A model generated the notes under the pieces. The model saw nothing but the letters and a program-made list of their open reading frames with translations. It was not told the origin of the DNA and searched no databases. This document shows, piece after piece, positions 10,424-29,426 of a DNA stretch of 64,000 bases. This stretch comes from Syntrophales bacterium. Lineage in GTDB: Bacteria > Desulfobacterota > Syntrophia > Syntrophales > PHBD01. The stretch covers positions 2,592,001 to 2,656,000 of the forward strand of contig OY764159.1 in the NCBI GenBank assembly GCA_963668175.1, given 5' to 3'. The position numbers and the translations under genes were made by a program. Each line of letters opens with the position of its first letter. Position 1 is the stretch's first letter.

Positions 10424-10527
10424 GCTATGTCGGGTACCGGCCGTCGGCCGGTACGGCTTGTCTTTGCTCGGGCCTCGCGCCGGACGATTGCCCGGAAGCC
10501 GCCCGTACTGTCCGGCGAATCCCGCTC

Positions 10528-11202: not shown

Positions 11203-11560
11203 TCCTGCTCCCCCTTTCGGTATTCTGTATGCGGTGTTGCGATTCGGCGAGTGTGTAGATTGGAAAGCCTTAGCACGAATTCAATGCCGATTACCATCAA
11301 GAAGATGCACGGGGAAAATATTTCTGCGCGGCATCGGCGGCGCGGCGCAGTTGACGGCCGCGGGAAAGTGACGATAATTTCCGGACGATCAGCCGCGGAA
11401 TATCTTTTTAGGAAACTTGTGGGGAGAGAAATGAAAGCGGGAGCAAGTTTTCGTCAGTTTAACCCATAATATTTGGGCAACGTAAACTCCGCAGGAATTT
11501 AGCACATTCTGGTCATTATTAGATAAACCGAACAGTCTAAATATCGAGTCAAGTTGATTT

Positions 11561-12106
11561 TTAGGGTAATTCTATAAAGTGAACAATCTCAGATACCGAA
11601 GACAGACTTCCATCGAAGCTTCCTTCTTGCCGGTACATATCAATCATTATATTCCAGAATTCAATTGTCATCTTTCGAAAACGATTGACTTCATCTAAGG
11701 TCAATCTGTCAAGATCATGATAATTTTGATCAAATTTATTTTTTCCGAAATGCCTTATGATTGCGTAATATTTTAGGAATTCACGAAATGTCTTATTCAA
11801 TTGCTTTTGTTTTGTGCGGTCCGTGCGTGTACGGTGCAATAGATATGAAAACATTTCATGAGGTCGTCCCATATTTTCCTTTTCAGGTGATGGGTTATTC
11901 TGCCCAAGTAATTGCATAAGAGACAATCCTAAAGTTGCAATGATGAATGAGCATCGCTCGGTAAAATGGTCAACGTCATCTATTCCAACTTTTGAAATTA
12001 TATTGGCAAGCTCGTTCCAGGCTTCAGACGCCTTAATTAGTGAATATAATTGTAGGTTGGTATCCGATGAAGTAGTAGGTGAAGACAAATGACAGTAATA
12101 TCTCAT
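11561..12106 (-). CDS. Hypothetical protein, AT-rich (cassette-like)
   Basis: 181-aa ORF in an AT-rich patch starting just after a repeat half-site at 12163-12179. Confidence 0.65.
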   Translation of the reverse strand: MRYYCHLSSPTTSSDTNLQLYSLIKASEAWNELANIISKVGIDDVDHFTERCSFIIATLGLSLMQLLGQNNPSPEKENMGRPHEMFSYLLHRTRTDRTKQKQLNKTFREFLKYYAIIRHFGKNKFDQNYHDLDRLTLDEVNRFRKMTIEFWNIMIDMYRQEGSFDGSLSSVSEIVHFIELP

Positions 12107-12162
12107 TGCCTAATATGTCTCCATTCTTGATTAAGTATCATGACCTATACGAATAATTCCGT

Positions 12163-12179
12163 AATTCCGGGGACACCAT
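12163..12179. repeat. GGGGACA-type inverted-repeat family, site 1 (single arm)
   Basis: AATTCCGGGGACACCAT, essentially the reverse complement of the ATGGTGTCCCCGGAAT arm at ~17809-17824. Confidence 0.7.
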
Positions 12180-12228
12180 TTGATACTGCCGCTGCGTTCG
12201 TTTGCGGAAGAGCGGCGCACTGGACGGG

Positions 12229-13368
12229 TCAGGGCTTCAGATTGGTGTGAATGATCCTCGCGCCGTCGAAGCCGTTGAAGCGGGTGGACGAGGCCGTGCT
12301 GTAGGCGCCGATGTTGTCCGTCAGGAGGTAATCCCCGATTTCCAGGTTTCCCGGAAGCTGCACCGAGAGCGATATCTTGTCGAAGCTGTCGCAGGTCGGC
12401 CCGACCACGGCGCACACCTCTTTTTTCCCGCGCTTGAACGAACTGAAATTGGGCAGCCAGTGGTCGTAGATCACGCCGGAGAAGGTGTGATAGACGCCGT
12501 CGTTGATATAATAGAACAGCTTGCCGTCCCTCCGGGACTTGCCGATGATTTCGGTGATCAGCGTCGCCGCGGTCGCCGCGATGAATCTGCCCGGCTCCGC
12601 GATGATTTCGATATCCTTGGGGAAGAGCCGGTTGCATTCGTCGTCGATGAGGTTCGCCAGCTTCCCGAATTCCGGAACCTGCGAGTCGTAGGGCACGGGA
12701 AATCCCCCGCCGATGTCCAGGATCTTGAGGGAATGCCCCTTCTGCCTGGCGTCTTTCAGGATCGTCGAGGCGATGGCGAGCGCTTCGGTATAATTGTTGA
12801 AGTTCGTGCACTGGCTTCCCACGTGGAAGCTCACCCCTTCGACATCGAGCCCCTCCTCGCTCGCCTTTTGGATCAGATGGTCGGCTTCCGCCGGTTCGGC
12901 CCCGAATTTCGTGCTCATTTCGACCTGCGAGCCGGTATCGGGCACCTTCAGCCTGAGGACCAGGCCGGCCGTGTCGCAGCATTCCTTGATTTTCTTCAAC
13001 TCTTCGATATTGTCGAAGGTGACCAGGGGCCGGTACTGCCTGATTCTGCGGAGCGTCTCCTTGTCCTTGATGGTGTTGGAAAAAATGATCTTGTCCCAGA
13101 TATACGAATGCTGGTCTTCTTCCTCGAAGTGCTTGATGTATTCGTAGATCTGCATGAATTCGTTGTAGGAGGCGACGTCGAAGCTGGACCCCTCGCGGAA
13201 GAGGGTCCCGATGATCTCCGGGTGGGAATTGGCCTTCACCGCGTAATAGCATTGAACCCGGGGCAGGTTCTTCTTGAAGGTCCGGTAATTCTCCCGCAGC
13301 TTCGCGTGGTCCAGGATGAAGAGGGGCGTTCCGTGCGTCTTGATCAGGTCGGTGAGTTGTTTATTCAT
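12229..13368 (-). CDS. Ornithine/lysine decarboxylase (alanine-racemase fold, PLP)
   Basis: YAVKAN, FDVAS, KFGA, HVGSQ, DIGGGF, EPGR, GPTCD. Confidence 0.9.
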   Translation of the reverse strand: MNKQLTDLIKTHGTPLFILDHAKLRENYRTFKKNLPRVQCYYAVKANSHPEIIGTLFREGSSFDVASYNEFMQIYEYIKHFEEEDQHSYIWDKIIFSNTIKDKETLRRIRQYRPLVTFDNIEELKKIKECCDTAGLVLRLKVPDTGSQVEMSTKFGAEPAEADHLIQKASEEGLDVEGVSFHVGSQCTNFNNYTEALAIASTILKDARQKGHSLKILDIGGGFPVPYDSQVPEFGKLANLIDDECNRLFPKDIEIIAEPGRFIAATAATLITEIIGKSRRDGKLFYYINDGVYHTFSGVIYDHWLPNFSSFKRGKKEVCAVVGPTCDSFDKISLSVQLPGNLEIGDYLLTDNIGAYSTASSTRFNGFDGARIIHTNLKP

Positions 13369-14558
13369 TTTCGCTTCTTCGCCGCGAGATTTTTCATGAG
13401 CCGTGTGAGCTCACCGACCTCTTTGTTGTTTTCCAGGTAGGACTCGGCCAGCTTTTCGCGCAGCTCCTCCCCGCGGTCGTAAAGCCTTTTCTGCTTCCTG
13501 GGCTTGGTCGCATGCAGGACGTAGGCGACCATCAGCGGCAGGGCCACCGTGACGTCGAGATAGGCGGTGACCGCCTCTTCCAGCATCGTCGGGTCGATCT
13601 TGCCCCAGCTCGCCGCCTCGCTGGGCGGGGCCCCGGACAATCCGCCCGTATCGGGCCTCGCGTCGGTGACGTTGATGTCGTAATCCTGCCCCACCTCGGG
13701 GATCATGAGGACTTCCTGGATCTGCGGCTCCGTCTGGAGCATGAAATTCTTCGGGCTGCCGCCGCCGATGAGGATCACGCCGGTCTTCCCCTTCTCGTAA
13801 CGCTTGGCGTTCAGGATGATGGCGGTCGAATCGTTGACGTCGATGCTCGGGTTGATCTTCAGTTTGAAGGCGTTCTGCATGCCGGCCGTTTCCGCCAGGA
13901 GTTCCAGGCCGGCGACGTTCATGCCGATGGTGGAGTCGCCGGGCGACGACGTGAACACGGGGATGCCGTTCCGGTAGGCGGCGGCGAGGATGCTCACCTC
14001 TCCGAGTTTGTGTTTCTTTTCGTAGTCGTTCATCGCCTTGCCCAGGTGGTGGTAATATTCGCGGGTTCCCATCTCTTTCTGGAACTCCGGCTGGAGCATG
14101 ATCTTTCTCAAACGGCGGTCCGTCTCCATCAGCACGTCTTCGTAATCGAACAGGATGTCGTAAATCCGGGTCACGCCTTTGTCCCGCAGGTCGGCGTCGC
14201 TCACGGTATGGGAGCCGCGGTGCATGGGCAGGTTGAAGGCGAAGTGCAGGTCGTGGTACATGTTCGCGCCGGTGGCCGTCATCCAGTCGACAAAGCCGTG
14301 ATTCATGAGGGGGATGATCGCCGAAGGCCCCAGCCCCGCCGGGGTCAGCGCACCCGCCAGGCTCAAGCCCACGGTGACGTCGTTCCGGGAATACCTGTCC
14401 CGGAGCAGATGGCAGGCGGCCCGCAGCCGCCCGCCGTTGTAGGCATCCATATTGTCGATCAGTCTGACGATATCCGTCTTCTTCGAGATCGGTTCGGGGA
14501 GGATTCTCTTGCCGCAGAGATATTTCGATTTTCCGGGACATTCGGCTTTTTTCTTCAT
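13365..14558 (-). CDS. Deoxyhypusine synthase-like protein (putative homospermidine synthase)
   Basis: GGGSPKNF, DTGGLSGA.PSEA.SWGK (catalytic Lys position). Overlaps the ODC start by 4 nt. Start 14558 chosen from the upstream AGAAAGG. Confidence 0.85.
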   Translation of the reverse strand: MKKKAECPGKSKYLCGKRILPEPISKKTDIVRLIDNMDAYNGGRLRAACHLLRDRYSRNDVTVGLSLAGALTPAGLGPSAIIPLMNHGFVDWMTATGANMYHDLHFAFNLPMHRGSHTVSDADLRDKGVTRIYDILFDYEDVLMETDRRLRKIMLQPEFQKEMGTREYYHHLGKAMNDYEKKHKLGEVSILAAAYRNGIPVFTSSPGDSTIGMNVAGLELLAETAGMQNAFKLKINPSIDVNDSTAIILNAKRYEKGKTGVILIGGGSPKNFMLQTEPQIQEVLMIPEVGQDYDINVTDARPDTGGLSGAPPSEAASWGKIDPTMLEEAVTAYLDVTVALPLMVAYVLHATKPRKQKRLYDRGEELREKLAESYLENNKEVGELTRLMKNLAAKKRK

Positions 14559-14571
14559 GATCGCCTTTCTG

Positions 14572-14800
14572 ACAGGCCACGCCCCCCGCATGGGGGGTGT
14601 TGAAAAACGCCCATCTGCTGCTTGTCACCTTCAGGTGATGTTGCACTTCTTCCCTCGGATGCTCACGTACCCTTATGTATGCTCCGCTCCTCGGGCCTCG
14701 CGCGCCTTGCATCCGGACATTTTTGAACCCCCTGAAGGGGGCAAGCAGCCTGCGCGCCCCCTGCATAGGGGGTTCAATATCGAGTTTTTCACAAGCTGCC
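14572..14800. repeat. MITE-like intergenic element, copy 1 (with three micro-hairpin insertions)
   Basis: TGTTGAAAAACGCCCATCTG...CACCTTCAGGTGA...GGACATTTTTGAAC...ATCGAGTTTTTCA shared with 25315-25487. Confidence 0.75.
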
Positions 14801-15389
14801 AGAGATATCTGTTCGCTCCTAAATATCGTCCTTTCGGGCAGCACGGGGAAGAATAACAGTCTGCAAAATTGCCATTTCCTATATCGCATTTTGCCGGAAA
14901 ATAAAACCCGTGGAATGCGAAATCTTTCTCTTTGATGTGCGAATCCCGGGGGGATCGCCCGATGCGGCGCCTTATCTCGTCAGGGCCGGGCGGGAAAAAT
15001 GCGGGCGGAAATGTGCGTTGCGTCACAGCCGGTTGCACGGAAATATGGCACCATCGTTTCCAACGGGGATAATCAGGGCTTTGCGGCGGACAATTAAGGC
15101 ATCCCCCGATGGAGAAGCGGTTACGGATCGGACCATAATAGAGAGGCGGCGAGCAATCGCAACATGAACCCAGGCCTGGGAAGGCAAGGGGGGGCGCCAA
15201 AGGGGGGCATACACATGGACGGGCAGAAGAGAATGGAACCGAAGCGGGAGACGAAACAGGATACCAAGCGGCGTCTGACGAGGGTGCATGCCTATCCGGG
15301 GCCGGTTTTCCTGGCCGCGGCCAAACAGGTATCGGAAGCCCTGTACAGGGACCTGGGACGATTCACCCGAACCGCCAGGTAGCCGAACC

Positions 15390-15488
15390 ATTCCGGGGAT
15401 GCCATCCCCCCTGGTCAGGGGACGCGGTACACAATGATTTATCCTTCCCGGAAGTCAATCATTAAATAAGTGCGATGTCCCGAGAATT
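15390..15488. repeat. GGGGACA-type inverted-repeat family, site 2
   Basis: ATTCCGGGGATGCC...CCCCTGGTCAGGGG...AATAAGTGCGATGTCCCGAGAATT. Confidence 0.7.
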
Positions 15489-15510
15489 CTTTCGGCAAAG
15501 GACGGAAAAT

Positions 15511-15543
15511 AGAAAAGGCAGCACCGGGAACGGTGCTGCCTTT
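15511..15543 (-). terminator. Rho-independent terminator of PEP-CTERM gene
   Basis: 13-bp perfect stem AAAGGCAGCACCG/CGGTGCTGCCTTT. Confidence 0.75.
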
Positions 15544-15571
15544 GTGTTTGAACCGGACCAAAGGGAGTGTG

Positions 15572-16183
15572 CTATTTATGAAACTTCTTTCCGGCTGCCG
15601 TTGCGCCGAGCAGGCCGAGGCCCAAAAGCAGGACCGTAGACGGTTCGGGAACGGCCTGCGTGGTCTCCATGATCGCCGGGCCCGATAAGCACTCTACCGT
15701 TTCCATGGTATACTCATAGGCGCCGACATAAGTGATCGCCATGGCGCTGTTCGTGCCCAGGCTAACGCCGTCGGCCCGGAAACTGAAAGTGGCGGCAGAG
15801 CCCGTCTGGTAGACGGAACTCGGGTCCACGCCCCACCAGTACAACCATTCATACCCCGACGCGAGCGTTACAGGCACAAAGTAGGACGAAGCGCTCGGCG
15901 ACCAGTCGGCCGGGGCAATAATGGCCGTCCAGTACCCGCCGCCGGCCGGATTGTAAGCCGCCGGACTGGTGACATTCGCCAGGCTGACCGACCCCGTGGG
16001 CACCATGACGAAGAAGCCGTCCAACCCTTGGGACGCGCCGTTATTGGTCACCGTATAGGTGAAGTTATAGGAATCGCTGTCAATTTGAGTAATGGTTTCC
16101 TGGACGGTATAGGAACCCGCCGAAACCGTACTGCCGATCAGGAGCAATCCCGCGATTAAAAAGAACATGAATCTCTTCTTCAT
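15572..16183 (-). CDS. PEP-CTERM sorting domain protein
   Basis: Signal peptide; VPEPST + TM helix + KKFHK. Confidence 0.9.
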   Translation of the reverse strand: MKKRFMFFLIAGLLLIGSTVSAGSYTVQETITQIDSDSYNFTYTVTNNGASQGLDGFFVMVPTGSVSLANVTSPAAYNPAGGGYWTAIIAPADWSPSASSYFVPVTLASGYEWLYWWGVDPSSVYQTGSAATFSFRADGVSLGTNSAMAITYVGAYEYTMETVECLSGPAIMETTQAVPEPSTVLLLGLGLLGATAAGKKFHK

Positions 16184-16246
16184 TTGAATACCCCTCCTCC
16201 GCTGTAATATGATGGCTCACCTGATTTAACTCCCGTGGCGACATGT

Positions 16247-16343
16247 AGCAAATAAGGTGCCATGCGCATAAGTGATGAATATTTTAACTTATCGCGAAAT
16301 GTCGGCCGAGCCGGTCCGTCCGACGGTGTAAAAAAAGCCGACA
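16247..16343 (-). promoter_or_regulatory. Sigma54 promoter plus upstream 17-bp box
   Basis: Minus-strand TGGCACCTTATTTGCT (16262-16247) and TGTCGGCTTTTTTTACA (16343-16327). Confidence 0.75.
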
Positions 16344-16618
16344 GCAGCGACAGGGCGGGGCTGACGCCGATGCGGCGATTATCGAATCGGCACAAGGAGT
16401 AGGGCGGATGGAGGCGACTGTAAAATAAAAGGGCGCCGTGTTGGATTCCTTTACAGGTGGGGCATGGGAAGATCGGTATTATTTTGTGAAGAATTGTAAA
16501 CGCTGTCCGGGCGCGGGTTGAGAGAACGGGGTACGGTCCTGGAAGGCATGCGAAGGGGTGCGGGACGGCGCGATCAACCATTGTTTCCCGTTTGTTTTCG
16601 CAGGCTTCATGATCTTCG

Positions 16619-16921
16619 TCAGGGCCGCGTGTTTCCGCAGTTCCAGCACTCTGTGAATTGCCCCTCGATATCCTCGCCGCACGAATTGCATGTCCAGCCG
16701 GCTATTTCTTTTTCTGTAAGCGCTTCGTCCACAATGCGCATCGCTTCCGGGAAATCGTCGTCAATTACACATAGCCGAGGCCAGCACTCTATCGGCGGAA
16801 GCTCGCCGATCCCCGCGGAGAGAAATTCATTTTTTATCCAGCATTTGATCCCGTTTGCTTCCAGGATGTTCTGAAATATACTGACAAGCGGGAGGGTCGG
16901 TGCGCTGTAAACGGTCTTCAT
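16619..16921 (-). CDS. DUF2007-like protein with C-terminal RanBP2-type zinc ribbon
   Basis: LEANGI.C.IKNE..GELP...W; WTCNSC..EGQFTECWNCG. Confidence 0.75.
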   Translation of the reverse strand: MKTVYSAPTLPLVSIFQNILEANGIKCWIKNEFLSAGIGELPPIECWPRLCVIDDDFPEAMRIVDEALTEKEIAGWTCNSCGEDIEGQFTECWNCGNTRP

Positions 16922-16958
16922 TTTCTCTCTCCGGTTTGCCTTCTTGATGCATCCGAAT

Positions 16959-17023
16959 AATTCCGGGAACAAGCATACTAAATTGAGGAAAAATCGGAAT
17001 ACCGGAACGATGTCACCAGAATT
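16959..17023. repeat. GGGGACA-type inverted-repeat family, site 3
   Basis: AATTCCGGGAACAAGCATACTAAATTGAGGAAAAATCG...GATGTCACCAGAATT. Confidence 0.7.
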
Positions 17024-17053
17024 ATTGTGGAAAACATGATAGTGAACCAGTTT

Positions 17054-17338
17054 TCATGCCGCTGTTTTCAGCGTAACATGCATGCCGGCCCTCGTGGCAA
17101 GAGTGACAAGCATTTCAAGACTGAATCGCTCCCATTTGCCTCTAATCAGATCCGATATCCTGGACTGACTAACACATAGCATTTTCGCAGCATTGGTCTG
17201 TGTAAGTTTCCGGGTTTCGATGAACTTGCGAAGCTTGTCCATAAGATCGGCACGCATCTGAAGAATAGCGGCCTCTTCCTGAGAATATCCAAGATCGATA
17301 AATACATTGCCGGAAGACTTGATAATCGCGTTCTTCAT
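17054..17338 (-). CDS. XRE-family HTH antitoxin (HigA-like)
   Basis: SSGNVFIDLG; LTQ..AA..L.VSQSRISDL.RGK..RFSL. Confidence 0.85.
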   Translation of the reverse strand: MKNAIIKSSGNVFIDLGYSQEEAAILQMRADLMDKLRKFIETRKLTQTNAAKMLCVSQSRISDLIRGKWERFSLEMLVTLATRAGMHVTLKTAA

Positions 17339-17341
17339 AAA

Positions 17342-17662
17342 TTATCCTCCCATTTGCCTGTAGCGCTGGCGAGTCAAATCGATATCCTGCCGCCTTGTTT
17401 TTCTTGTTTTCTTTTGAAATGCGTGAAGCACATAAACGGCATCGCGAAGATTGGCTATATAGATAACCCGCCACTCCCCAAGAAAATGAATACGAATTTC
17501 TTTAACGCCGGAGCCGACAGCCTGTATTGGCTTCCAGTCGCTTGGTTCAAGTCCCGACTGAATGGCGTGGAGTTCAAAACCGGCAGCCCGTCTTGCTTCA
17601 TCGGGGAAGTTCCGGAGATCTTCCAGACTCGATCACACGAATTTCAACGGTTTCATCTTCAT
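17342..17662 (-). pseudogene. RelE/HigB (Gp49-like) toxin interrupted by a premature TGA
   Basis: MKMKPLKFV*SSLEDLRNFP...DWKP..GVKEIRI...RVIY...YVLHAFQKKT; TGA at 17633-17635. Confidence 0.8.
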
Positions 17663-17701
17663 GGCGCCATTATATAAGTTTTTGTATATTTGGCAAGAAT
17701 A

Positions 17702-17825
17702 AATTCCCGGTCAATGAATACCCGGGGTTCCGGGGACGCAATCCCCCCTGGTCCGGGGACACGTTTCCTAGTCAGGGGGCAGTGTTCCCGGAAATTCTCG
17801 AATTAAGTATGGTGTCCCCGGAATC
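17702..17825. repeat. GGGGACA-type inverted-repeat family, site 4 (compound)
   Basis: Several TCCGGGGAC arms, a CCTAGTCAGGGG motif and the right arm AATTAAGTATGGTGTCCCCGGAAT. Confidence 0.75.
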
Positions 17826-17876
17826 GTTAATAGGAATTGCCGTGAATTATGGTTTGAAGGAAAGTTATGCGGCCGA

Positions 17877-18713
17877 TTAATCTGACGGCTTGGCATTCGG
17901 CTGTATGGGTTTGTTAGAAGTGCCATATGGTTCTTGACGGCACAACTTGAACCACTCGCACGCTATCCCTCGAAACGGCTTATAAGGTTTATTGTTCTGA
18001 ATTGCGTGAACCTGATTCCATGGTATGAAGTGATATGAATTTCTGTCGTCGAGGATCAGTACCCCCTTTTCAAAAGTTCTCAGAATATTTCCCGAAACTG
18101 AGGCAGATGGTGCACTTCGTTCTATGGTTACCTTGGAAGGTTTACGGACGGTCGCATCTAACGCAGCATTGTATCCACTAAAAAATGCGACAATTACGAT
18201 AATAGGTAAGAATGTGAATCCAAACTGAACTTGTCTACTACGACGAATTTTAATGAGGGGAGCCGCGTAACACCACTCCGCAAATCCCATCCACACAATC
18301 GATAACATCAAAGGTAGTATAGACGCAAAAACATCCCCAATCAACACATAGATAATCACATAAAGTGGTGCCGTCCAGGCCATTAATTTCCATGGGCCTT
18401 CTCGAAACTTTCGCATCCGTTCCGGATTAGAAGCAGACTCAATAATTTCCTTTTCATTTAGCCCTCGTTCTATTCTCTTGAACTGGAATTCAATAGCAAC
18501 ACTACCAAGAAGAAAGAATAGAAGGTATGGAAACCATAGTAGGCCACTCCGAAAATGATCAGTGGTCGTTGTATGCAATTTCGCAAAATCTAAGCCCAAA
18601 GCGTAAAAGAAGCCCCAATCGTAAATGACAGAAACGACAAATCCGGCGGCAACTGCAACGGCAACGCCTTCTGCAAGGGTGCCCAAAGATATAGCTTTAT
18701 ATTCACTTAGCAT
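17877..18713 (-). CDS. Hypothetical multi-pass membrane protein, AT-rich cassette
   Basis: 278-aa ORF with several hydrophobic segments; bounded by sites 4 and 5. Confidence 0.75.
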   Translation of the reverse strand: MLSEYKAISLGTLAEGVAVAVAAGFVVSVIYDWGFFYALGLDFAKLHTTTTDHFRSGLLWFPYLLFFLLGSVAIEFQFKRIERGLNEKEIIESASNPERMRKFREGPWKLMAWTAPLYVIIYVLIGDVFASILPLMLSIVWMGFAEWCYAAPLIKIRRSRQVQFGFTFLPIIVIVAFFSGYNAALDATVRKPSKVTIERSAPSASVSGNILRTFEKGVLILDDRNSYHFIPWNQVHAIQNNKPYKPFRGIACEWFKLCRQEPYGTSNKPIQPNAKPSD

Positions 18714-18725
18714 AAAAAATCACAT

Positions 18726-18811
18726 AACTCTGGAGACATCCATACTAAATAAAGGGAAAAATCGATCAATAAGTCCGCGTCCCCTGACTAGGGGGTGGTG
18801 TCTCCGGAATT
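18726..18811. repeat. GGGGACA-type inverted-repeat family, site 5
   Basis: AACTCTGGAGACATCCATACT...AAAAATCGATCAATAAGT-CCGCGTCCCCTGACTAGGGG-GTGGTGTCTCCGGAATT. Confidence 0.8.
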
Positions 18812-19153
18812 CTTTTGACACGAATCCAAGTTCCTCTTTTCGATTTTAGTTGCTGAAAGAATATCTTTTAATAGACCTAATACGTATGTGTAAAAGAGAA
18901 TTGCCGCCGCAAGAAAAAAACCCGATTTGCCTGTCGCGTAATAATGACTACCAATAATCATAAGAACAGCTATTAATTTTAAGAATTCAATTTGAAAATA
19001 ACCATATTTTTCATGAAATTTAAAGTATTTATTATCTATTGAATGATGATGCTTTTTCGCATAGTAGAGTAAAATTGCATCTAGAAAATAAAATACTATC
19101 AATGAATATTCGATAAATGAATCAAGTATCGATATATACTCTGTTAATTTCAT
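18788..19153 (-). CDS. Hypothetical small membrane protein, very AT-rich cassette
   Basis: 121-aa hydrophobic ORF; last codons and TAG stop lie inside site 5. Confidence 0.6.
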   Translation of the reverse strand: MKLTEYISILDSFIEYSLIVFYFLDAILLYYAKKHHHSIDNKYFKFHEKYGYFQIEFLKLIAVLMIIGSHYYATGKSGFFLAAAILFYTYVLGLLKDILSATKIEKRNLDSCQKNSGDTTP

Positions 19154-19167
19154 GAGGCCTCATTAAT

Positions 19168-19257
19168 AATTCTGGAAACACCATACTCAATAGAGGCAAA
19201 AATCGATCAATAAGTACCGCGCGCGCCCCCGGACTAGGGGGTGGTATGCCCGAGATT
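19168..19257. repeat. GGGGACA-type inverted-repeat family, site 6
   Basis: AATTCTGGAAACACCATACT...AAAAATCGATCAATAAGT...CCCCGGACTAGGGGGTGGTATGCCCGAGATT; near-copy of site 5. Confidence 0.8.
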
Positions 19258-19430
19258 GTTGACATATCGTTAGCCGATAAGTATCAAAGTATGAAAATAC
19301 ACATATATTTTATATAATCCATTGCCCTTGTCAAGCGTCTAATTCGCGGCAACGGACTTATACGCGGTTCCTGGCGGTGCATTGCGCGGGTGAGCCTGCG
19401 GGAGTGTTAACGGCAAAATGAATGAGCCCC
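19258..19430 (-). promoter_or_regulatory. Duplicated leader block with leftward sigma70 promoter, copy 1
   Basis: Minus-strand TTGACA (19334-19329)-N16-TAAAAT (19312-19307); block is homologous to 27568-27735. Confidence 0.65.
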
Positions 19431-19590
19431 CCCCGGAGTGCGGCGCGTTTGATTCGCGTAATCCGGGGCGGCGTCTGCGGCGGGAATTAGGGGAGGATAG
19501 AAAGATAACGCCCGTTCTGCCGGGGCGGCTTCGCGGCGTGGGCGTGGACTTCGAGGGAGCTTTGGGGATTCCGGCCGACGCTCGATGCGC

Positions 19591-19645
19591 CAAATAGAAA
19601 CGGCCCCCGTACCGGTTCGTCGCCCGGCGGCGGGGGCCGCATCCA
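19591..19645 (-). terminator. Repeated terminator-like hairpin, copy 2 of 3
   Basis: Minus strand GCGGCCCCCG...CGGGGGCCGT-TTCTATTT just after the stop at 19662. Confidence 0.7.
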
Positions 19646-19661
19646 GGAATTGTATCGCACA

Positions 19662-21143
19662 TCAGCCGATCAGCCTAGTTACTTGGCCGCACTCCCTGCA
19701 AATGCGAGTTCGGGACATATGAGAACTTCTCCGGAGCAGGTAGCCATGCGCGGCGCAATAGCGCTTTCCGCAAAACGTGCACTCGTGCCATCTGGTTCCC
19801 ACCGTCGTGCCCCCTGCGCGATAGACAGCGCCGCATCCTTTCTCGCAACATGCGTTCGCCGGCGAGGCAACGCCGTGCTTGTCTTCGGGTTTGGGTAGCA
19901 GCGTGCGCCAGATCCTTTTCCAGTCCGCCTCATGGACGGTAAGGGCATCCAGAAACAGGTTGCCGCCTATGGCCAGATTCTGAGGCGTGTTCTGGAGCCG
20001 CGGGTGCTTTTGCAGACGGTTGAACGCGGCCTTGTGTCCCACGTCCATCGTGTTCACGGATGTCTGGAGAAGCGAAACTCCGTATTTGAGGTAATGATAG
20101 CAATCCAGGTGCCAGCGCGTATTGAGGGCTTTCGCGATTTTAATGTAATCGGGGGCCTCTCCCGTATCGGGGAGGGGGTGCCACGATTCCCCCCGGCCGA
20201 GATGAATCGAAGAGGGCGGATAGTTTGCGGCATACATATAGGTGGTGCAAGGGAAGCAGGAGGCCATTTTCGTCGTGTCCTTACCCACGGCCATTTCGTA
20301 CGGCGTGCACCAGGGGCCGCATTTGATGGATTCCCGTATCGCCCAGCTCATCCCGTGAACATATCCGACGACGCCTTTATGACGCAGGCGAGATTCCTCG
20401 TCAGATGATAACGGGCCCATTCCCTTGGACGGATCGGGACTCAGATTCATCTCCGGATTCTTCGGCGGACTGATGAGCCCGTGTTCGCGTTGCCCGAAGC
20501 CGCCTTCCTTGTGCCACCGGTTCTCGTGCGGCACGACGATGCGTTTTGTGGGCTGCACGAGCGTGTTGTGATAGACGGGATCGTCGATCATGCCCGTGTA
20601 GGCGCCCCTGCCATAATAGCCCCCCGGCTGGTACATCTCCTGTTTTCCCCGGGTTATTCCCCCTGGATCAGCAGGGGGCTTGACTCTCGCGGGGCCGGTA
20701 ACCATCGCGCCCCCCGCGCGGCCGGTGATTCGTTCACCGATGTCCCATTGCGGCGATTGCGCATCCTTGATCAATGGGCTGTGCAAATGGTTCTTATTGA
20801 GCACCTGGGTCATCGCCTCGACGACGACGAGGAAGGACTGCATTTCTTCCAGATGCTCGATATATTCCTGCTTCGCCTTTTTCCATTTCTCTTGATCCGC
20901 TGGTTTACCTTCTAGCATCGTAAGATCATGATCGAATTGCGGATTGTCCATTCTTTCGAAGAGGAGCGTCGTTTCGGGGTCCTTCGTTTCGATATCGAAG
21001 CTGAACGGCTGTTCGAGATGTATCCGCGTGGCGCTGAATCCCAGCACGGTCGCAGTGACAATAACATCGGCTTCATGATTGCAGCGCTCTTGATATGTTC
21101 TGTGATCCAAGTGAATGTTATCACCGAGTATTGTTTTCATCAT
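19662..21143 (-). CDS. Hypothetical protein with SCFPC motif and C-terminal FYVE-like Cys/His zinc finger
   Basis: GGAGG RBS before ATG 21143; tail CCEKGC...WHECTFCGKRYCAAH...RICREC. Confidence 0.7.
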   Translation of the reverse strand: MMKTILGDNIHLDHRTYQERCNHEADVIVTATVLGFSATRIHLEQPFSFDIETKDPETTLLFERMDNPQFDHDLTMLEGKPADQEKWKKAKQEYIEHLEEMQSFLVVVEAMTQVLNKNHLHSPLIKDAQSPQWDIGERITGRAGGAMVTGPARVKPPADPGGITRGKQEMYQPGGYYGRGAYTGMIDDPVYHNTLVQPTKRIVVPHENRWHKEGGFGQREHGLISPPKNPEMNLSPDPSKGMGPLSSDEESRLRHKGVVGYVHGMSWAIRESIKCGPWCTPYEMAVGKDTTKMASCFPCTTYMYAANYPPSSIHLGRGESWHPLPDTGEAPDYIKIAKALNTRWHLDCYHYLKYGVSLLQTSVNTMDVGHKAAFNRLQKHPRLQNTPQNLAIGGNLFLDALTVHEADWKRIWRTLLPKPEDKHGVASPANACCEKGCGAVYRAGGTTVGTRWHECTFCGKRYCAAHGYLLRRSSHMSRTRICRECGQVTRLIG

Positions 21144-21576
21144 GGCCTCCTTTGCCCGTGATGCTACAACAGGGTCCAGAACCCGGAGGTGATAAAAGCG
21201 AAAAAGGAAAGATAAGGGAATGATCTCCACCGTCCGGCGTTAAATCCGGCCGCACCTGGGGTCAGGGCGGCTTCCGGCATGCTTCAGCAGGAGCAGGTCG
21301 AGCGCAGCGCTGGCTTCTTCGTCGAAAATCCGCTGAAAAAAATGCCTTTTCATCAGCGCATTTCTGATTAGGAACTTGCTATAAAAAAATCGTACGCAAA
21401 ACGGAATTGCCTGTCAAGGAATAAATGAATAACTTGAAATAATATTAGTAACATATGCGTGTAGATAACCCCGGAGTGCCCGTGTCGCGGGGGTCAATAT
21501 ATAGATCGTTATGCTATTTCTTATACATATACTCTAGGGATATGCTTCTCGTGCGATCCGGGCGCTGATGCAGGCT

Positions 21577-21632
21577 CAAATAGAAACGGCCCCCGGCACC
21601 GGTTCGTCGCCCGGCGGCGGGGGCCGCGTCCA
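21577..21632 (-). terminator. Repeated terminator-like hairpin, copy 3 of 3 (downstream of PFOR)
   Basis: Near-identical to 19591-19645. Confidence 0.7.
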
Positions 21633-21634
21633 CA

Positions 21635-25312
<3,678 letters not shown>

Positions 25313-25314
25313 TT

Positions 25315-25487
25315 AGCAGGCTGTTGAAAAACGCCCATCTGTCGTTTATCACCTTCAGGTGACGTCGCGCCGCAAGCCTCGTCAATCGACATACCTCTAT
25401 GTATGCCTCATTCCTCAGCTTTTGCGCGTCTTACATCTGGACATTTTTGAACAGCCTGTTTGTAATCGAGTTTTTCAAAAAGCTGTT
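25315..25487. repeat. MITE-like intergenic element, copy 2
   Basis: AGCAGGCTGTTGAAAAA ... TTTTTGAACAGCCTGTT ... TTTTTCAAAAAGCTGTT inverted ends; abuts the PFOR RBS. Confidence 0.75.
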
Positions 25488-25815
25488 AATATGAACCTAT
25501 AAGCTATAGGTCGAATGACACAAACAGCAATCCAACAGCACGTGCCTTCTTAGGGTGTAGCCTCGGAATTGGAAGCAGCCTCGGAATGGGTGGACATCCG
25601 GTAACCGGGGATAGACTTAAGATGTGACAGAACTATACTGGACGATAGCCGCTGTAACACAAAAATGTAAGATTATCAAAAGAAAATTGAAACGCCCGAA
25701 GGCGGCGATAACAGGGCGAAATTCCCTGTCCCCGGCGGCTTCGGCGGGGGTGATAACGTTACCTGAACCGGTAGGTCAGGGGAAATATCCGTTTTCTCCT
25801 TGAGAAAACTTATCA

Positions 25816-25873
25816 CCGCGTCCCCTGAACAGGGGATGGACGTCCCCTGACCAGGGGCGCGTGGCCCGGAATT
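25816..25873. repeat. GGGGACA-type inverted-repeat family, site 7
   Basis: Tandem CGTCCCCTGAMCAGGGG hairpins, then GTGGCCCGGAATT. Confidence 0.75.
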
Positions 25874-25895
25874 GCGGAACTTGTATATTGCAAAT

Positions 25896-26414
25896 TCATT
25901 CAAATCGAGAAATGAATTCTCCAATTTGGTCAAATCTATTTAATTGAATCAGATATAAAATTCCCACAGTGAATAATATAAATGGTATCGAAAGCATAAT
26001 AAAATAAGAGCCATGATATAAACCCAACGTTGCGAAAAAAATAAATACTAAGGCTACAATAAGAGAGCTATAATTAACAATTCCTTTAATTTGAAGAATC
26101 TGATCGTTGTACTTAATAAAAATGAATCCCCTCATTATGGGTGTATATACGAGAAAGCTTGCAGATAGCATTGATTCCCTGAAGCCAATTTCGCTACTGC
26201 TAAATTCATGAAAAATTATCGGTTGAAACCATTTACTTCTATTTTGCGCATTCAATTCTTCTATGGGCGGTATTTTCCTGAAATTATATTCTTTGGAATA
26301 AATCACTAACCCTCTGGTGAAAAGGGTTCTGGACCAAGTCGATTCTAAAGACGCTTCCAGCACAATAATTGCGATGACTGTTAGTACCCCGATAATAATC
26401 ATGGTCTCGTTCAT
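25896..26414 (-). CDS. Hypothetical membrane protein, AT-rich cassette
   Basis: Hydrophobic N- and C-terminal segments; start 26414 chosen because the longer track ORF begins inside site 8. Confidence 0.65.
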   Translation of the reverse strand: MNETMIIIGVLTVIAIIVLEASLESTWSRTLFTRGLVIYSKEYNFRKIPPIEELNAQNRSKWFQPIIFHEFSSSEIGFRESMLSASFLVYTPIMRGFIFIKYNDQILQIKGIVNYSSLIVALVFIFFATLGLYHGSYFIMLSIPFILFTVGILYLIQLNRFDQIGEFISRFE

Positions 26415-26450
26415 CTTTCTTAACCCATGATATGTTTCACAACAATCGGT

Positions 26451-26555
26451 AATTCTTGGGACCCTTATTATATAGAGGAAAAAATCGGCGAATAAGTGCC
26501 GCGTCACCTGACCAGGGGAGCGTGCTCACTGACTCGGGGAGGTGTTCCCGGCATT
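26451..26555. repeat. GGGGACA-type inverted-repeat family, site 8
   Basis: AATTCTTGGGACC...ATAGAGGAAAAAATCG..AATAAGT..CCTGACCAGGGG...GGTGTTCCCGGCATT. Confidence 0.75.
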
Positions 26556-26805
26556 AGGCTACTGATTAAGAGTCGGTTGTTCTTCTCGCAGTCTTTGCCG
26601 CCATCGGAGCAAATGCCGTCCGACAAGAAAACATGTATATTTTTGTATTGAAATACAATATTATTAGGCGTATTTAATATAGTCATATAGAGATTTCACG
26701 AATCATTTCTACTCCTGCACCCCCCGGAGGGTCGCACTTCCATGTCTGCAACAAAGAAGAGCAATATATCAAGATCGTTATTTCTTTGAAAGGAGCATAT
26801 CGCAT

Positions 26806-27420
26806 ATGATTCATCCCGTTAGATTATATCAATCCGTTTATCGCATCATAACCGCTTTCACAATTTTTGTAATTTTGACAGGGTGTGCAGGGGGACGCGA
26901 TTTCACACGTCCTGATCCCGGAAGCCTTCAGCTTGGCAAAACAACATATGAAGAAGTCATTCAGAAATATGGAGATCCGCTTCGCCCGACAACAAAAATT
27001 ATAGATGGAGAAACGGTAAACGAAATTTCTTATTCATATGCGTATGCTGTGCCTTACACGACTACGGTACGCTCTCGCTCGTCTTCATTTTCTTTCTGGA
27101 AGGGCGCGTTGATTGGCTATCGATACACGAGCTCCTTCCCTGAGGATAATGCCAAATTTGACGATGGAAAAGTTTCCGCAATTACACGTGGTGTAACAAA
27201 GAAACAACAAGTCATCGATTTGCTGGGTGTGCCGGCAGGTTATTCTCAATATCCGCTTATTAAAGAAAAGAATACCCTGGGTTTGGTTTACACAGCCTAC
27301 GAAACGTGGCGCATACCGTTCACACCCACTCTGCGTTATATCACTAAGACCTTGATCGTTACCTGCGGGCCGGATGATATCGTCATTTCTACGGAACTTT
27401 CATCCTCTGAGTCGAAATAA
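26806..27420 (+). CDS. Lipoprotein with two SmpA/BamE-like repeats
   Basis: LTGC lipobox; GKTTYEEVIQKYGDP and GVTKKQQVIDLLGVP. Confidence 0.75.
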   Translation: MIHPVRLYQSVYRIITAFTIFVILTGCAGGRDFTRPDPGSLQLGKTTYEEVIQKYGDPLRPTTKIIDGETVNEISYSYAYAVPYTTTVRSRSSSFSFWKGALIGYRYTSSFPEDNAKFDDGKVSAITRGVTKKQQVIDLLGVPAGYSQYPLIKEKNTLGLVYTAYETWRIPFTPTLRYITKTLIVTCGPDDIVISTELSSSESK

Positions 27421-27440
27421 TGCCTTGATGCGAGCAGATT

Positions 27441-27567
27441 AATTCCAGGGACGCCATCCCCCCTAGTCAGGGGACGCGCCCATTTCCGGGGACACGGTGC
27501 TGAATAGATGGAAAAATCGATATATAAGTAACGCCTCCCCTGACGGGGAGATCGTGTGCCCGGAATT
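27441..27567. repeat. GGGGACA-type inverted-repeat family, site 9
   Basis: AATTCCAGGGACGCC-CCCCTAGTCAGGGG...TTCCGGGGACAC...AAAAATCGAT..ATAAGT...TGTGCCCGGAATT. Confidence 0.8.
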
Positions 27568-27735
27568 GCGGATATATCGTGGATCAATGAGTATCCAAGT
27601 ATAAGAATTCAAATATACTTTATATAATCCATTCCTCTTGTCAAGCGGGTATTATGTCGCAATAGGCTTATGCCCGGTTCTCGGCGGTGCGGGGTGCTGA
27701 CTGCTGCGGGGAGTCTTTCAAATGAATAAAAAACC
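27568..27735 (-). promoter_or_regulatory. Duplicated leader block with leftward sigma70 promoter, copy 2
   Basis: Minus-strand TTGACA (27644-27639)-N16-TAAAGT (27622-27617); shares TTTATATAATCCATT..CTTGTCAAGCG with copy 1. Confidence 0.65.
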
Positions 27736-27807
27736 CCCTCCCTCCCCATGGATAGGGGAAAGAGGGGGCGGATGAATTGGTTATTTCCTCAGAGTCCTAT
27801 GCGTCTA

Positions 27808-29376
27808 TTACGCCCAGGGTTTCAGCCCGGCGATCCTCGCGCCGGCGAGGCGGCCGAAGGTAACGGCGTTCGTGAGGTGCCAGCCGCTCCGGTAGCCCAC
27901 GCTGTTCGTGTAGCCGCCCGCAACGTGGCCCGCCGCATAGAGGCGGGGGATGATCTGCATGTCGGGGTCGAGGACGTGGGACTCGTCGTCGATCCGGAGT
28001 CCCCCCATCGTCATGACGATGCCCACGAGGCCCTTCCATCCGTAGAAGGGAGGCGTCTTCAGTTCGATCAGGTACTTGGGGTTGCGGCGGAACTGGGCGT
28101 CTTCCTTCTTCGCCACGGCCTGGTTGTAGGCCTCCACGGTCTTCTTGAGGCCCGCGGGGTCGATGGAAAGCTTTCCCGCCAGCTCTTCCAGGGTGTCGGC
28201 CTTCTTGATGATGTAGCCGTCGCCCTTGATCCCCTTGAGGAAAAGCTCCTGCTGTCCGCGGAAGTTCGTGGAGAGGCGGGGATTCGCCGCGATGTCCTTC
28301 GCCGCCGTTTCGTCGAAGACGCAGACGAACTGGTTGTTCACCTTCTGGACCTCGGGCATCAGCGGCGTGTAGTGGCCCTGGACGATCTCGTCGCAGAAGC
28401 GCCTGCCGCCCTTGTCGACGAGGATGAGGCCGCTCCTCGCCAGGAGGTCGTAGCGGCACCAGAGGGTGTACTTGCCCGGGGCGACCTCGACGCAGTGGGG
28501 ATGGCCCTCGGGGGAGAAGCCCGTGATGTCCGCGCCCAGTTTCTGGGCCATGCGGATGCCGTCGCCGGTGTTGCCCGGGTGGCCGACGAAGATCGAGCCC
28601 TTGAGTTCCGGGAAGTGGCCCTCGATGTAGGGCTGGTTGGCGGCGAAGTCGCCCGTCGCGATGAGGACGGCCTTCTTCACCTTGATGTTCATGACCTTGC
28701 CTTTTTCGCCCACGCACTCGACGCCGGCCACCTCGCCCAGGGGCGTGGACAGGCCGCAGTTGTCCAGATAGAGCCTCGTGGCCTTCGTTTCGAGGAGGAT
28801 GGGCACCTTGCGCTTACGCACCTCGCCCGTGAGGGCCTTCATGAGCTTCGCGCCGCCGTTGGCCTCGCGGTAGCAGCGGTCCACCGTGTAACCGGGCAGG
28901 GGATCGACGTTGGTCCACTTCAGGCCCGCGGCCTGGAGGAACTTGTACGTGTCGAGGGCGTTCTCGATGAGCTTGCGGGCCAGCTTCGGGTTGACGCCGT
29001 TGTTCGACGTCTTCATCGTGTCCTGGTACCACTTTTCGTTGGAATCGTTGGTGATCCCGGCGGCCTTCTGGAGGTCCGTCCCTGCCGCCATGACCGTTCC
29101 CGAGGATAGGAGGCCCGCCCCGCCGGGGAAGGGCATCTTTTCCAGGACGAGGACCGATTTGTCCCCGGCGTCGGCGGCGGCGATGGCCGCGGAGCAGCCC
29201 GCCACGCCCGCGCCGATGATGAGAATGTTGACCTCGCGATCCCACTTCTTAGGCGGCTGCGCCGCCTGCGCATCTTTGCCGCTTAAATTGACGAGGGCAA
29301 GCGAACCCAGGCCCGCGGCCGTAGCCTTCATGAATCCCCGTCTCGAAAAAGACGTCTTTTTGCGTTCTTCCGACAT
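27808..29376 (-). CDS. Tat-exported flavocytochrome c flavin subunit
   Basis: SRRGFM signal; IIGAGVAG; GNTGDG; TMGGL; LYAAG. Confidence 0.85.
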   Translation of the reverse strand: MSEERKKTSFSRRGFMKATAAGLGSLALVNLSGKDAQAAQPPKKWDREVNILIIGAGVAGCSAAIAAADAGDKSVLVLEKMPFPGGAGLLSSGTVMAAGTDLQKAAGITNDSNEKWYQDTMKTSNNGVNPKLARKLIENALDTYKFLQAAGLKWTNVDPLPGYTVDRCYREANGGAKLMKALTGEVRKRKVPILLETKATRLYLDNCGLSTPLGEVAGVECVGEKGKVMNIKVKKAVLIATGDFAANQPYIEGHFPELKGSIFVGHPGNTGDGIRMAQKLGADITGFSPEGHPHCVEVAPGKYTLWCRYDLLARSGLILVDKGGRRFCDEIVQGHYTPLMPEVQKVNNQFVCVFDETAAKDIAANPRLSTNFRGQQELFLKGIKGDGYIIKKADTLEELAGKLSIDPAGLKKTVEAYNQAVAKKEDAQFRRNPKYLIELKTPPFYGWKGLVGIVMTMGGLRIDDESHVLDPDMQIIPRLYAAGHVAGGYTNSVGYRSGWHLTNAVTFGRLAGARIAGLKPWA

Positions 29377-29426
29377 TTTTTTATTCCCTTTCTTTCATAT
29401 GTTGTTTCTTAACACCGATTCAGGCA

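Follow-up and report, generated by a model that had tools for sequence, protein, structure and literature searches.

The window analysed here is a stretch of 64,000 nucleotides from a Syntrophales bacterium (assembly GCA_963668175.1, contig OY764159.1, forward strand). Between its positions 12,150 and 27,740, nine related sites with GGGGACA/TGTCCCC inverted repeats accompany small genes in what resembles two cassette arrays, A and B. These sites were probably left by an orphan, decaying repeat family that derives from TIRtrons and that resides in strain-variable accessory DNA. TIRtrons, in the passages that define them, are RAYT-like genes lying between terminal inverted repeats (TIRs) that share the motif GGGGWSAS, and their enzymes are called TIRYTs (Di Nocera et al. 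2013, PMC3733652).

The nine sites would thus be non-autonomous derivatives of an insertion sequence (IS)-like unit of about 750 bp, composed of a TIRYT gene between GGGGWSAS-bearing TIRs. An enzyme of this type may, if it works like IS608 TnpA and E. coli TnpA-REP, nick single-stranded DNA at the repeat ends and move repeat-bounded segments. A lineage-specific derivative, referred to below as type A, would have spread earlier to some 24 loci, all in the fifth of the chromosome that adjoins the terminus; the transposase gene would have been lost since, so that the copies would now be immobile and decaying. Their apparent arrangement as cassettes would come from their lodging in accessory DNA that varies between strains, is mostly of low GC and lies between housekeeping operons. 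The repeats would then be passengers or scars of this variable DNA, and not capture sites of the attC type.

The repeat arms match TIRtron ends

The 23-nt arm TTCCGGGGACACCATACTTAATT, sought with up to three mismatches, was present in 54 of the 151 sampled genomes of the order (29 of 62 genera), while the reversed control gave no match; none of eight other genomes from the window's own family carried it. Many of these matches formed +/- pairs about 715-725 bp apart. An inverted arm pair in genome G025 (G-numbers designate other genomes of the same order, L-numbers loci fetched from genomes) bracketed a 220-aa open reading frame (ORF) matching PF01797 (Y1_Tnp). Relatives of this 220-aa protein were then located by tblastn between or beside arm copies in loci of 12 other genomes (G075, G145, G050 with two loci, G013, G039, G049, G103, G032, G080, G038, G065 and G127). 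A tie between GGGGACA-type repeats and RAYT-like transposases of the HUH/Y1 class had been put forward in the first-pass annotation of this DNA, and it was confirmed by these arm pairs, which flank a Y1 gene in other genomes. GGGGWSAS was present as GGGGACAC (W=A, S=C, A, S=C) in the arms of the window copies and likewise in TIRs that flank TIRYT genes. Since this arm fits the published TIRtron motif, which the passages on TIRtrons also give as GGGG[AT][CG]A[CG] (PMC3733652, PMC6006769), the family is of a known kind and the proposed tie was correct.

The 220-aa proteins scored 51-78 bits against the NCBIfam model REP_Tyr_transpos (cut-off 80) and fell short of the IS200 model NF033573 (20.5-21.9 bits, cut-off 55); the best PF01797 score among TIRYT proteins was 60.7 bits. 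Their nearest solved structure by sequence was E. coli TnpA-REP (4ER8, E 0.0016), with conservation of the HUH and tyrosine motifs ('nhvhl' aligned with 'ehmhc' and 'ryiemnpvra' with 'dyiyinpvkh'). TIRYT-type enzymes are assigned to subclass 2.1 of TnpA-Y1, with a C-terminal helix-turn-helix extension, in the relevant passages of Quentin et al. (2018, PMC6006769). Pfam (E up to 5) recognised no C-terminal helix-turn-helix in the roughly 90 residues beyond the Y1 domain of the present proteins. The words TIRYT and TIRtron were met only in these two papers (Di Nocera et al. 2013; Quentin et al. 2018) within the literature searched.

The TIRtron unit measured about 750 bp including its arms and was 85-92% identical between genomes. 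G032 alone gave eight TIRYT protein matches and several arm pairs spaced exactly 715 bp. Where the enzyme exists the unit therefore behaves as an IS, being multi-copy and 85-92% identical from one genome to another. Copies of the TIR without the gene, which may be single, dimeric or clustered and of moderate number, are also mentioned in the passages on these repeats (PMC3733652, PMC6006769). Two such gene-less elements of 173 nt were found in G145 (L048, G145:C17, positions 8301-8473 and 11820-11992). They displayed perfect AATTAAGGGGACACCTTACT ends and different flanks; one lay directly beside a partial arm, and no obvious target duplication was seen around them. Their 98.8% identity implies recent movement of a miniature derivative. 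Doublets in G038 were situated between genes for a sigma-54 activator, a histidine kinase, ATP synthase and Fe-S proteins, like ordinary intergenic repeats of the REPIN/MITE type (REPINs and miniature inverted-repeat transposable elements).

The nine sites of the window

All nine sites listed in the first-pass annotation were recovered by reading the sequence, at or a few bases from where it had placed them. Its consensus was likewise borne out, with an arm AATTCCGGGGACACCATACT, an inner part AAAAATCGAT..ATAAGT, a hairpin CCCCTGAC(C/T)AGGGG and then GGTGTCCCCGGAATT. Alignment of seven copies gave (A)ATAATTCYGGGGACACCATACT as left arm, AATAGAGGnAAAAATCGATnnATAAGT as inner part, CGCGTCCCCTGAC(C/T)AGGGG as hairpin and GGTGTCCCCGGAATT as right arm; the best-conserved portion of the type A copies was the unpaired inner motif AAAAATCGAT..ATAAGT. 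A profile of the family built by iterated nhmmer recovered seven window sites (E 1.2e-19 to 5.8e-5) plus half-copies at 25804 and 27438; site 1 was detectable by pattern only. The 11-mer core with at most one mismatch matched the window seven times against 2.2 expected, a number that none of 100 shuffles reached, and the 23-mer arm with at most three mismatches matched the whole genome 12 times against zero for the reversed control. Chance is excluded as the origin of these repeats.

Elements were 75-165 nt long and took the form of solo arms, inverted doublets or mosaics. Site 1 (12153-12180, plus strand), seen by reading and pattern matching, is a solo truncated TIR arm in which AATAATTCCG is followed by TAATTCCGGGGACACCAT, a terminal 'stutter' considered below. 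It lies between the AT-rich ORF181 and the 3' end of a decarboxylase gene, and no inverted partner was found nearby. Site 2 (15385-15497, minus strand; nhmmer E 6.8e-17) is an inverted doublet in reverse orientation downstream of a PEP-CTERM gene. Site 3 (16955-17032, plus strand; E 5.8e-5) is a short degraded doublet in the gap between a DUF2007 gene and a toxin-antitoxin (TA) module. Site 4 (17702-17830, minus strand; E 3.1e-12) is a composite of a reversed half and a further copy; it displays a long hairpin and carries a perfect TTCCGGGGACACCATACTTAATT at 17801-17823 on the minus strand.

Full type A elements were found at sites 5, 6 and 8 and within site 9, all on the plus strand. Site 5 (18722-18816; E 1.2e-19) occupies the entire spacer between ORF278 and ORF121, and its arms share a matched G>A / C>T change. 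Site 6 (19163-19262; E 1.8e-17), with degraded arms, lies 11 nt upstream of the ORF121 start. Site 8 (26449-26552; E 2.4e-13), also with degraded arms, separates ORF172 from a lipoprotein-like gene. Site 9 (27436-27574; E 1.2e-17 and 2.4e-4) starts with a reversed half-copy (27436-27478), which is followed by the full element (27480-27574). Site 7 (25719-25880, plus strand) is a variant in which a right arm accompanies two CCCCTGA(A/C)CAGGGG hairpins in tandem; it is similar to a copy at genome positions 1951370-1951500. Its nhmmer half-copy matches were at 25804 (E 0.0032) and at 25810/25841 (E 0.013 and 0.011), and its true start is near 25719, as opposed to the 25816 proposed earlier.

Probable loss of the transposase and decay of the copies

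The enzyme that had been supposed to serve these sites in trans is lacking, this genome being without any Y1 transposase. Searches of the genome with PF01797 (E<=0.01) and with a TIRYT protein query gave no match, the best tblastn hit reaching only E 0.62, and a hidden Markov model built from 13 TIRYTs found nothing at E<=10 in the six-frame translation. The suggestion that a Y1 transposase gene would be flanked by the same arms thus held for other genomes of the order and failed for this one.

Arm differences counted in 16 doublets were symmetric in 10 cases and asymmetric in 111: the arms diverge independently, as relics do. When folded as single-stranded DNA and compared with shuffles, sites 4 (z -2.80), 7 (z -5.52 for 25735-25880) and 9 (z -4.20 for 27480-27574 and -3.62 for the entire site) folded well, within a range of z -2.8 to -5.5. 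Four of the eight folded sites were no better than shuffles (sites 2, 3, 6 and 8, with z of -0.81, -0.32, -0.15 and +0.69, hence from -0.81 to +0.69), and a fifth, site 5, was weak (z -1.55). The whole type A element, represented by site 5, was sought in 338 other genomes of the order, where only pieces of up to 26 nt were found. A counterpart of site 2 occupies the equivalent position in a relative from run X1, a set of biofilm metagenome contigs in which this relative appears at 93-96% identity and a depth of about 100; the contig concerned is 441 nt long and corresponds to 15353-15755 with 15 differences. Asymmetric decay, poor folding, the restriction of type A to one lineage and the presence of site 2 in the relative together suggest an older burst in this lineage, followed by loss of the transposase.

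Distribution along the chromosome

The host genome is a single contig of 4,567,304 bases without N (GC 0.558), of which the window covers 2,592,001-2,656,000. The nhmmer profile gave 38 hits in it, merged into 24 loci and 11 islands, with seven loci inside the window. All loci were located at 1.95-2.90 Mb, and the chance that 11 islands fall within one such arc is about 1.7e-6. GC skew placed the terminus near 2.88 Mb and the origin near 0.54 Mb, so that the repeat zone is the last part of one replichore. All 11 islands thus occurred in the 0.95 Mb before the skew-inferred terminus, and low-GC DNA elsewhere contained zero copies. Low-GC tiles are hardly commoner in the zone than genome-wide (5.6% vs 4.1%), and foreign DNA alone therefore does not explain the location of the copies.

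Comparison with a close relative and with other genomes

Contigs of run X1 covered window positions 10500-11109, 12237-14461, 15353-15755, 21764-25343 and 28159-29500, and depth was 0 over 11134-11767, 16206-16839, 18108-18741, 20010-21277 and 26350-26983. In consequence, the AT-rich segments, together with the GC-normal stretch of 19.4-21.7 kb that holds a 522-aa ORF (ORF522), went undetected in the relative at >=90% identity; the backbone genes were seen in it. Run X2 supplied low-depth pieces of conserved genes only, and run X3, probably the source sample, displayed the window's own structure.

One X1 joint, 25688->27812, had good support (depth 115; shorter side 51 nt), and further letters may lie between its ends. 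It skips array B, its head promoter and the upstream terminator, and ends about 30 nt to the left of site 7 and about 240 nt to the right of site 9. Two further joints fell inside repeats (17736->19166, depth 140, side 52; 15408->19198, depth 36, side 24); these may derive from other copies, because their short sides sit in repeated sequence. Gain and loss of cassettes with breakpoints in the repeat had been anticipated: the AT-rich segments were indeed not detected in the X1 relative, but the clean indel ended outside the repeats.

More distant genomes offered no synteny that could be used to map gain or loss. Synteny in other genera was limited to single operons (pyruvate:ferredoxin oxidoreductase, PFOR; decarboxylase plus deoxyhypusine-synthase-like gene). 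Metagenome contigs retrieved with the flavocytochrome protein comprised three loci at 80-85% DNA identity, with neither downstream synteny nor repeats. All-against-all blastn of 50 loci from 27 genomes showed that these share the TIRtron unit and two syntenic stretches, with no common cargo. Between G080 and G117, two genomes of the same genus, one border of a variable segment coincides with the end of a gene and the other is only close to a weakly arm-like sequence, an ambiguous result.

Integrons as an alternative

The first-pass annotation had described the arrays as integrase-less and integron-like. Its first adjective was justified: no integron integrase was found, the best TIGR02249 match scoring 82.6 bits against a cut-off of 265. 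All matches were Xer-like or phage-type and far from the window, and the same search gave sub-cut-off matches in each of 14 control genomes. The second adjective was not borne out, in the absence of both IntI and attC core sites. The cores RYYYAAC / GTTRRRY occurred at the element ends of none of the nine sites on either strand, and complementary R''/R' pairs numbered zero in 11000-29000 (shuffle mean 0.8). Rfam returned no family at gathering score over the whole window and, at E<=1 over 11-29 kb, two chance-level matches, none of them relevant, although Rfam may hold no attC model.

Integron cassette arrays and their integrase-less clusters of attC sites (CALINs), as reportedly set out by Cury and co-workers in 2016, do resemble the present arrays. 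Both have a promoter at one end, here reading leftward, short and mostly co-oriented unknown genes, a TA module, and a folded imperfect inverted repeat between genes, and in both the content is strain-variable. The element sizes (75-165 nt) and paired ends would also suit integrase-less attC sites, folded and once served by IntI. Yet the arrays lack IntI and R''/R' cores, one gene is inverted, the TA module has its own promoter and the indel does not end in repeats, which belong to a transposon family whose arm flanks a Y1 transposase gene elsewhere. Because neither IntI nor attC core motifs were found, we do not regard the arrays as an integron or CALIN, an origin that seems improbable in the extreme.

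Possible transactions at the outer ends of the arms

Several observations sit less easily with an orphan TIRtron-derived family that merely resides in variable DNA, and they weigh against that interpretation. To begin with, the enrichment of copies beside low-GC genes predicted by the first-pass annotation was real: 17 of the 24 loci adjoin an 800-nt flank with GC <0.45, compared with 9.6% of random positions in the zone (binomial p ~1e-12), and the same applied to 7 of the 11 islands. Passive hitch-hiking offers no obvious explanation for this pattern, because low-GC DNA outside 1.95-2.90 Mb is without copies. Moreover, the cargo ORFs of the window take up almost exactly the space that separates the outer ends of adjacent elements: ORF121 and ORF278 start at a distance of 10-11 nt from an arm, and for most other gene ends the distance is no more than about 50 nt. 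Co-occurrence of the motif with a TIRYT was weak as well (odds ratio 1.75, p 0.12). Among 150 genomes, 34 had both, 19 the motif only, 49 a TIRYT only and 48 neither, a table blurred by many incomplete assemblies and by TIRYT subfamilies with other TIRs. The 19 genomes with the motif only indicate that orphan repeat families are not rare. A TIRYT-like protein (E<=1e-20) was encoded by 181 of the 339 genomes of the order searched and by three of eight other genomes of the window's own family. Genomes with a TIRYT gene yet no TIR repeat family are also mentioned in the passages on these enzymes (PMC3733652, PMC6006769).

A further such observation was the stutter, in which the outermost 8-20 nt of the arm recur as partial tandem copies of varying length just outside it. 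It accompanied 23 of 86 hits (<=2 mismatches), two controls giving 3 of 86 each, and it points to repeated DNA transactions exactly at the outer ends of the arms. Examples in this genome are site 1 (12153-12180) and places near 2080886, 2660170 and 2901260. Stutter was also recorded in loci L028, L049, L061, L062, L064, L069 and L076; in L049 it was present at both ends of an intact TIRtron.

Arms further head modules of Rhs orphans, five of five in G032 (all in locus L061) and four of six in this genome, where they are located immediately upstream of the conserved core fragment. The G032 modules consist of stutter plus arm, about 90 nt, and then a core fragment of 1.2 kb with 93-95% identity from module to module. 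All five junctions differ even though the adjoining 1.3 kb is 93-95% identical, implying independent events rather than simple tandem duplication. G032 and this genome belong to different families, and their Rhs arrays were without DNA similarity (>=200 nt, E<=1e-20) in all-against-all blastn. Arrays in which Rhs-repeat polymorphic-toxin genes precede orphan modules, each made up of a core fragment, a variable tip and a small gene, were observed at genome positions 2,079,500-2,093,000 (L009, 5500-18903) and in L061, L062 and L063 of G032. Nothing relevant was found in the literature searched for a connection of Rhs orphan toxins to Y1 transposases or to IS/inverted repeats.

These results raise the alternative that arm-headed modules would be added serially at the outer arm end, which would act as a joining site for the Y1 transposase of a resident or transient TIRtron. 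Arrays of TA pairs, orphan toxin/immunity genes and ORFans would be built in this way, and those of the window would have been frozen after enzyme loss. Besides stutter and the Rhs modules, a 12-kb array of G145 speaks for it, in which 19 motif hits are distributed between MazE, ParE, MazF and AbiEii modules, together with three DUF4143 ATPases, an ECF (extracytoplasmic function) sigma factor and the TIRYT gene itself. The coincidence of cargo boundaries with outer arm ends and the non-detection of AT-rich segments in the X1 relative would fit too. This genome, however, has no enzyme. The clean indel 25688->27812 ends about 30 nt and 240 nt beyond the repeats, removing the promoter head and terminator as well, and the in-repeat joints, with short sides of 24 and 52 nt, perhaps stem from other copies. 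Loci from 27 genomes share no cargo but the TIRtron itself, only one of the two G080/G117 breakpoints is even close to an arm-like sequence, and a weak one, the other coinciding with the end of a gene, and stutter of variable length is a misfit for a precise site-specific cut. We therefore consider serial accretion of genes unlikely as the account of these arrays. The observations fit repeated DNA transactions at the outer arm end; foreign genes may have been joined there, and the sites of the window may have captured genes. Were this rather doubtful scheme true, it would amount to a single-strand, transposase-driven counterpart of the integron, with stutter as its scar and the window arrays as its fossils.

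Shared promoter-like heads and a possible regulatory role

The first-pass annotation had assigned a common promoter to arrays A and B, and the resemblance is real: about 250 nt (19150-19400 and 27465-27710) display 80% column identity. Head module A (19255-19400, minus strand) is promoter-like and directed leftward into site 6 and ORF121, with TTGACA-16-TAAAAT at 19334->19307 (11/12 matches). Head module B (27565-27735, minus strand), equally promoter-like, carries TTGACA-16-TAAAGT at 27644->27617 just downstream of the flavocytochrome gene terminator, next to a terminator-like site at 27769->27733. The head module occurred in two copies only in the whole genome. As the two arrays share a duplicated promoter-plus-repeat head, some copies now lie in 5' leaders of cargo genes.

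Placement of the copies might accordingly reflect co-option as cis-regulatory elements (leaders, insulators, terminators or determinants of RNA stability), a role compatible, as a secondary one, with a TIRtron origin. Conservation between the two heads takes in the -35/-10 hexamers plus roughly 60 nt on their upstream side; ORF121, ORF278 and ORF172 each have an element 10-36 nt before the start codon; and the inner AAAAATCGAT..ATAAGT is unpaired and best conserved in type A. The arms, on the other hand, are decaying, no Rfam family matches, and no T run directly follows the hairpins, the terminator scan showing only the 27551->27534 hairpin. As an explanation of the placement, co-option appears decidedly improbable.

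Relation to known repeat systems

The arrangement found in other genomes of the order, with a RAYT-like Y1/HUH gene between long GGGGWSAS-bearing TIRs, is that of TIRtrons, as are the gene-less TIR singles, dimers and clusters. This genome differs in having the repeat family without any TIRYT gene, the mismatch described in the passages on TIRtrons being the opposite one, a gene without repeats (PMC3733652, PMC6006769). Its copies also occur in no more than one fifth of the chromosome, where they adjoin mainly low-GC accessory genes, and their mosaic inner part is lineage-specific. Some genomes of the order depart from TIRtrons in that the unit is multi-copy (eight protein matches in G032), 85-92% identical between genomes and IS-like.

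The IS200/IS605 family, in which IS608 follows a 'peel and paste' mechanism and miniature derivatives occur, shares with the present elements the Y1 HUH fold (PF01797), a small unit of about 0.7 kb and gene-less derivatives. It is distinguished by asymmetric subterminal hairpins in place of long terminal inverted repeats, and TIRYT scores 78 bits as a REP-tyrosine transposase vs 21 bits with the IS200 model. Mosaics of repeat units around a conserved inner motif presumably recall bacterial interspersed mosaic elements (BIMEs).

As in repetitive extragenic palindromes (REPs) and BIMEs and in REPIN-RAYT systems (Bertels & Rainey 2011, PMC3116915; Bertels et al. 2017, PMC5581495), inverted doublets form hairpins, and a RAYT-clade Y1 transposase is flanked by the repeats. 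Contrary to REPIN-RAYT, the arms of the window have neither a GTAG (GT[AG]G) tag nor a self-palindromic REP unit of 20-40 nt. Copies number tens and not hundreds, with 24 loci clustered within 21% of the chromosome instead of dispersed, and matched arm changes are rare (10 symmetric vs 111 asymmetric). The transposase in this order is neither single-copy nor vertically inherited.

The present family is thus an odd addition to the little-studied TIRtron class, a repeat family that would have outlived its transposase and that marks strain-variable DNA. It also calls for caution, as transposon-end repeats between small foreign genes can mimic the layout of an integron. The stutter, the arm-headed Rhs orphans and the TIRYT inside a TA array provide material for the question of TIRYT function and of how orphan-toxin and TA arrays are assembled.

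Cargo genes and other observations

The GC contrast reported earlier between cargo and backbone was real: cargo ORFs had a GC of 0.30-0.53 vs 0.57-0.65 for the flanking housekeeping genes (nitroreductase, ornithine/diaminopimelate decarboxylase, deoxyhypusine-synthase-like gene, PFOR and flavocytochrome), but not every gene of the span is AT-rich, the PEP-CTERM gene (0.58) and the 522-aa ORF (0.56) being GC-normal. ORF181, ORF278, ORF121, ORF172 and ORF204 matched no Pfam or NCBIfam family, and comparison of the cargo ORFs among themselves showed no relationship.

All cargo genes but one are on the minus strand. ORF181 (11561-12106) has a GC of 0.36. The DUF2007 gene (16619-16972; PF09413, 55.2 bits) has a GC of 0.53 for 16619-16921; its Pfam match begins at residue 18, where an ATG is present at 16921. 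Array A further includes the membrane-like ORF278 (17877-18713, GC 0.43), which had no homolog at E<=1e-5 in 338 other genomes of the order, and ORF121 (18788-19153, GC 0.30), whose 3' end enters the right arm of site 5. ORF172 (25896-26414, GC 0.33), in array B, is unrelated to ORF121 and ORF278. The opposite orientation was displayed by the lipoprotein-like ORF204 (26806-27420, plus strand, GC 0.44).

The TA module (17054-17662, minus strand), which has a promoter-like site of its own at 17696->17669, pairs an HTH_37 antitoxin gene (17054-17338) with a Gp49/DUF891 toxin gene (17345-17662). It is 82% identical in DNA over 652 nt to a module of G022, where the flanks are different repeats. The toxin gene has an in-frame TGA at codon 10, the antitoxin gene being intact; in the G022 DNA, codon 10 of the homologous module seemed uninterrupted.

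The 522-aa ORF (19662-21230, minus strand) has a Cys-rich C-terminus and is annotated in this genome as a product of 492 aa. It had 151 relatives at E<=0.001, with named sources in Myxococcaceae, Chloroflexi, Blastocatellia and cyanobacteria and in several named genera, among others. The idea that it is a hidden recombinase was rejected: it belongs to an uncharacterised family, patchy over several phyla, without Pfam or NCBIfam match.

Other repeats were noted around these genes. The positions 19570-19658, 21557-21645, 21632-21703 and 21761-21832 comprise recurring terminator-like segments (AAATAGAAACGGCCCCCG...CGGGGGCCGC) and a 72-nt tandem pair (93% identity) downstream of PFOR, which gave rise to ambiguous joints when reads were compared. 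Another repeat family, unrelated to the TIRtron-derived one and with inverted ends of 26 nt (CAGGCTGTTGAAAAACGCCCATCTG ... ACATCTGGACATTTTTGAACAGCCTG), is represented in the window at 14570-14800 and 25313-25490. Its copies there lie close upstream of the PFOR and deoxyhypusine-synthase-like genes. Eight further copies were located in the genome near 1.546, 1.733, 1.961, 2.052, 2.167, 2.225, 2.258 and 2.821 Mb. Short matches to this family were found in many other genera of the order, and several ambiguous X1 joints fell within its copies.

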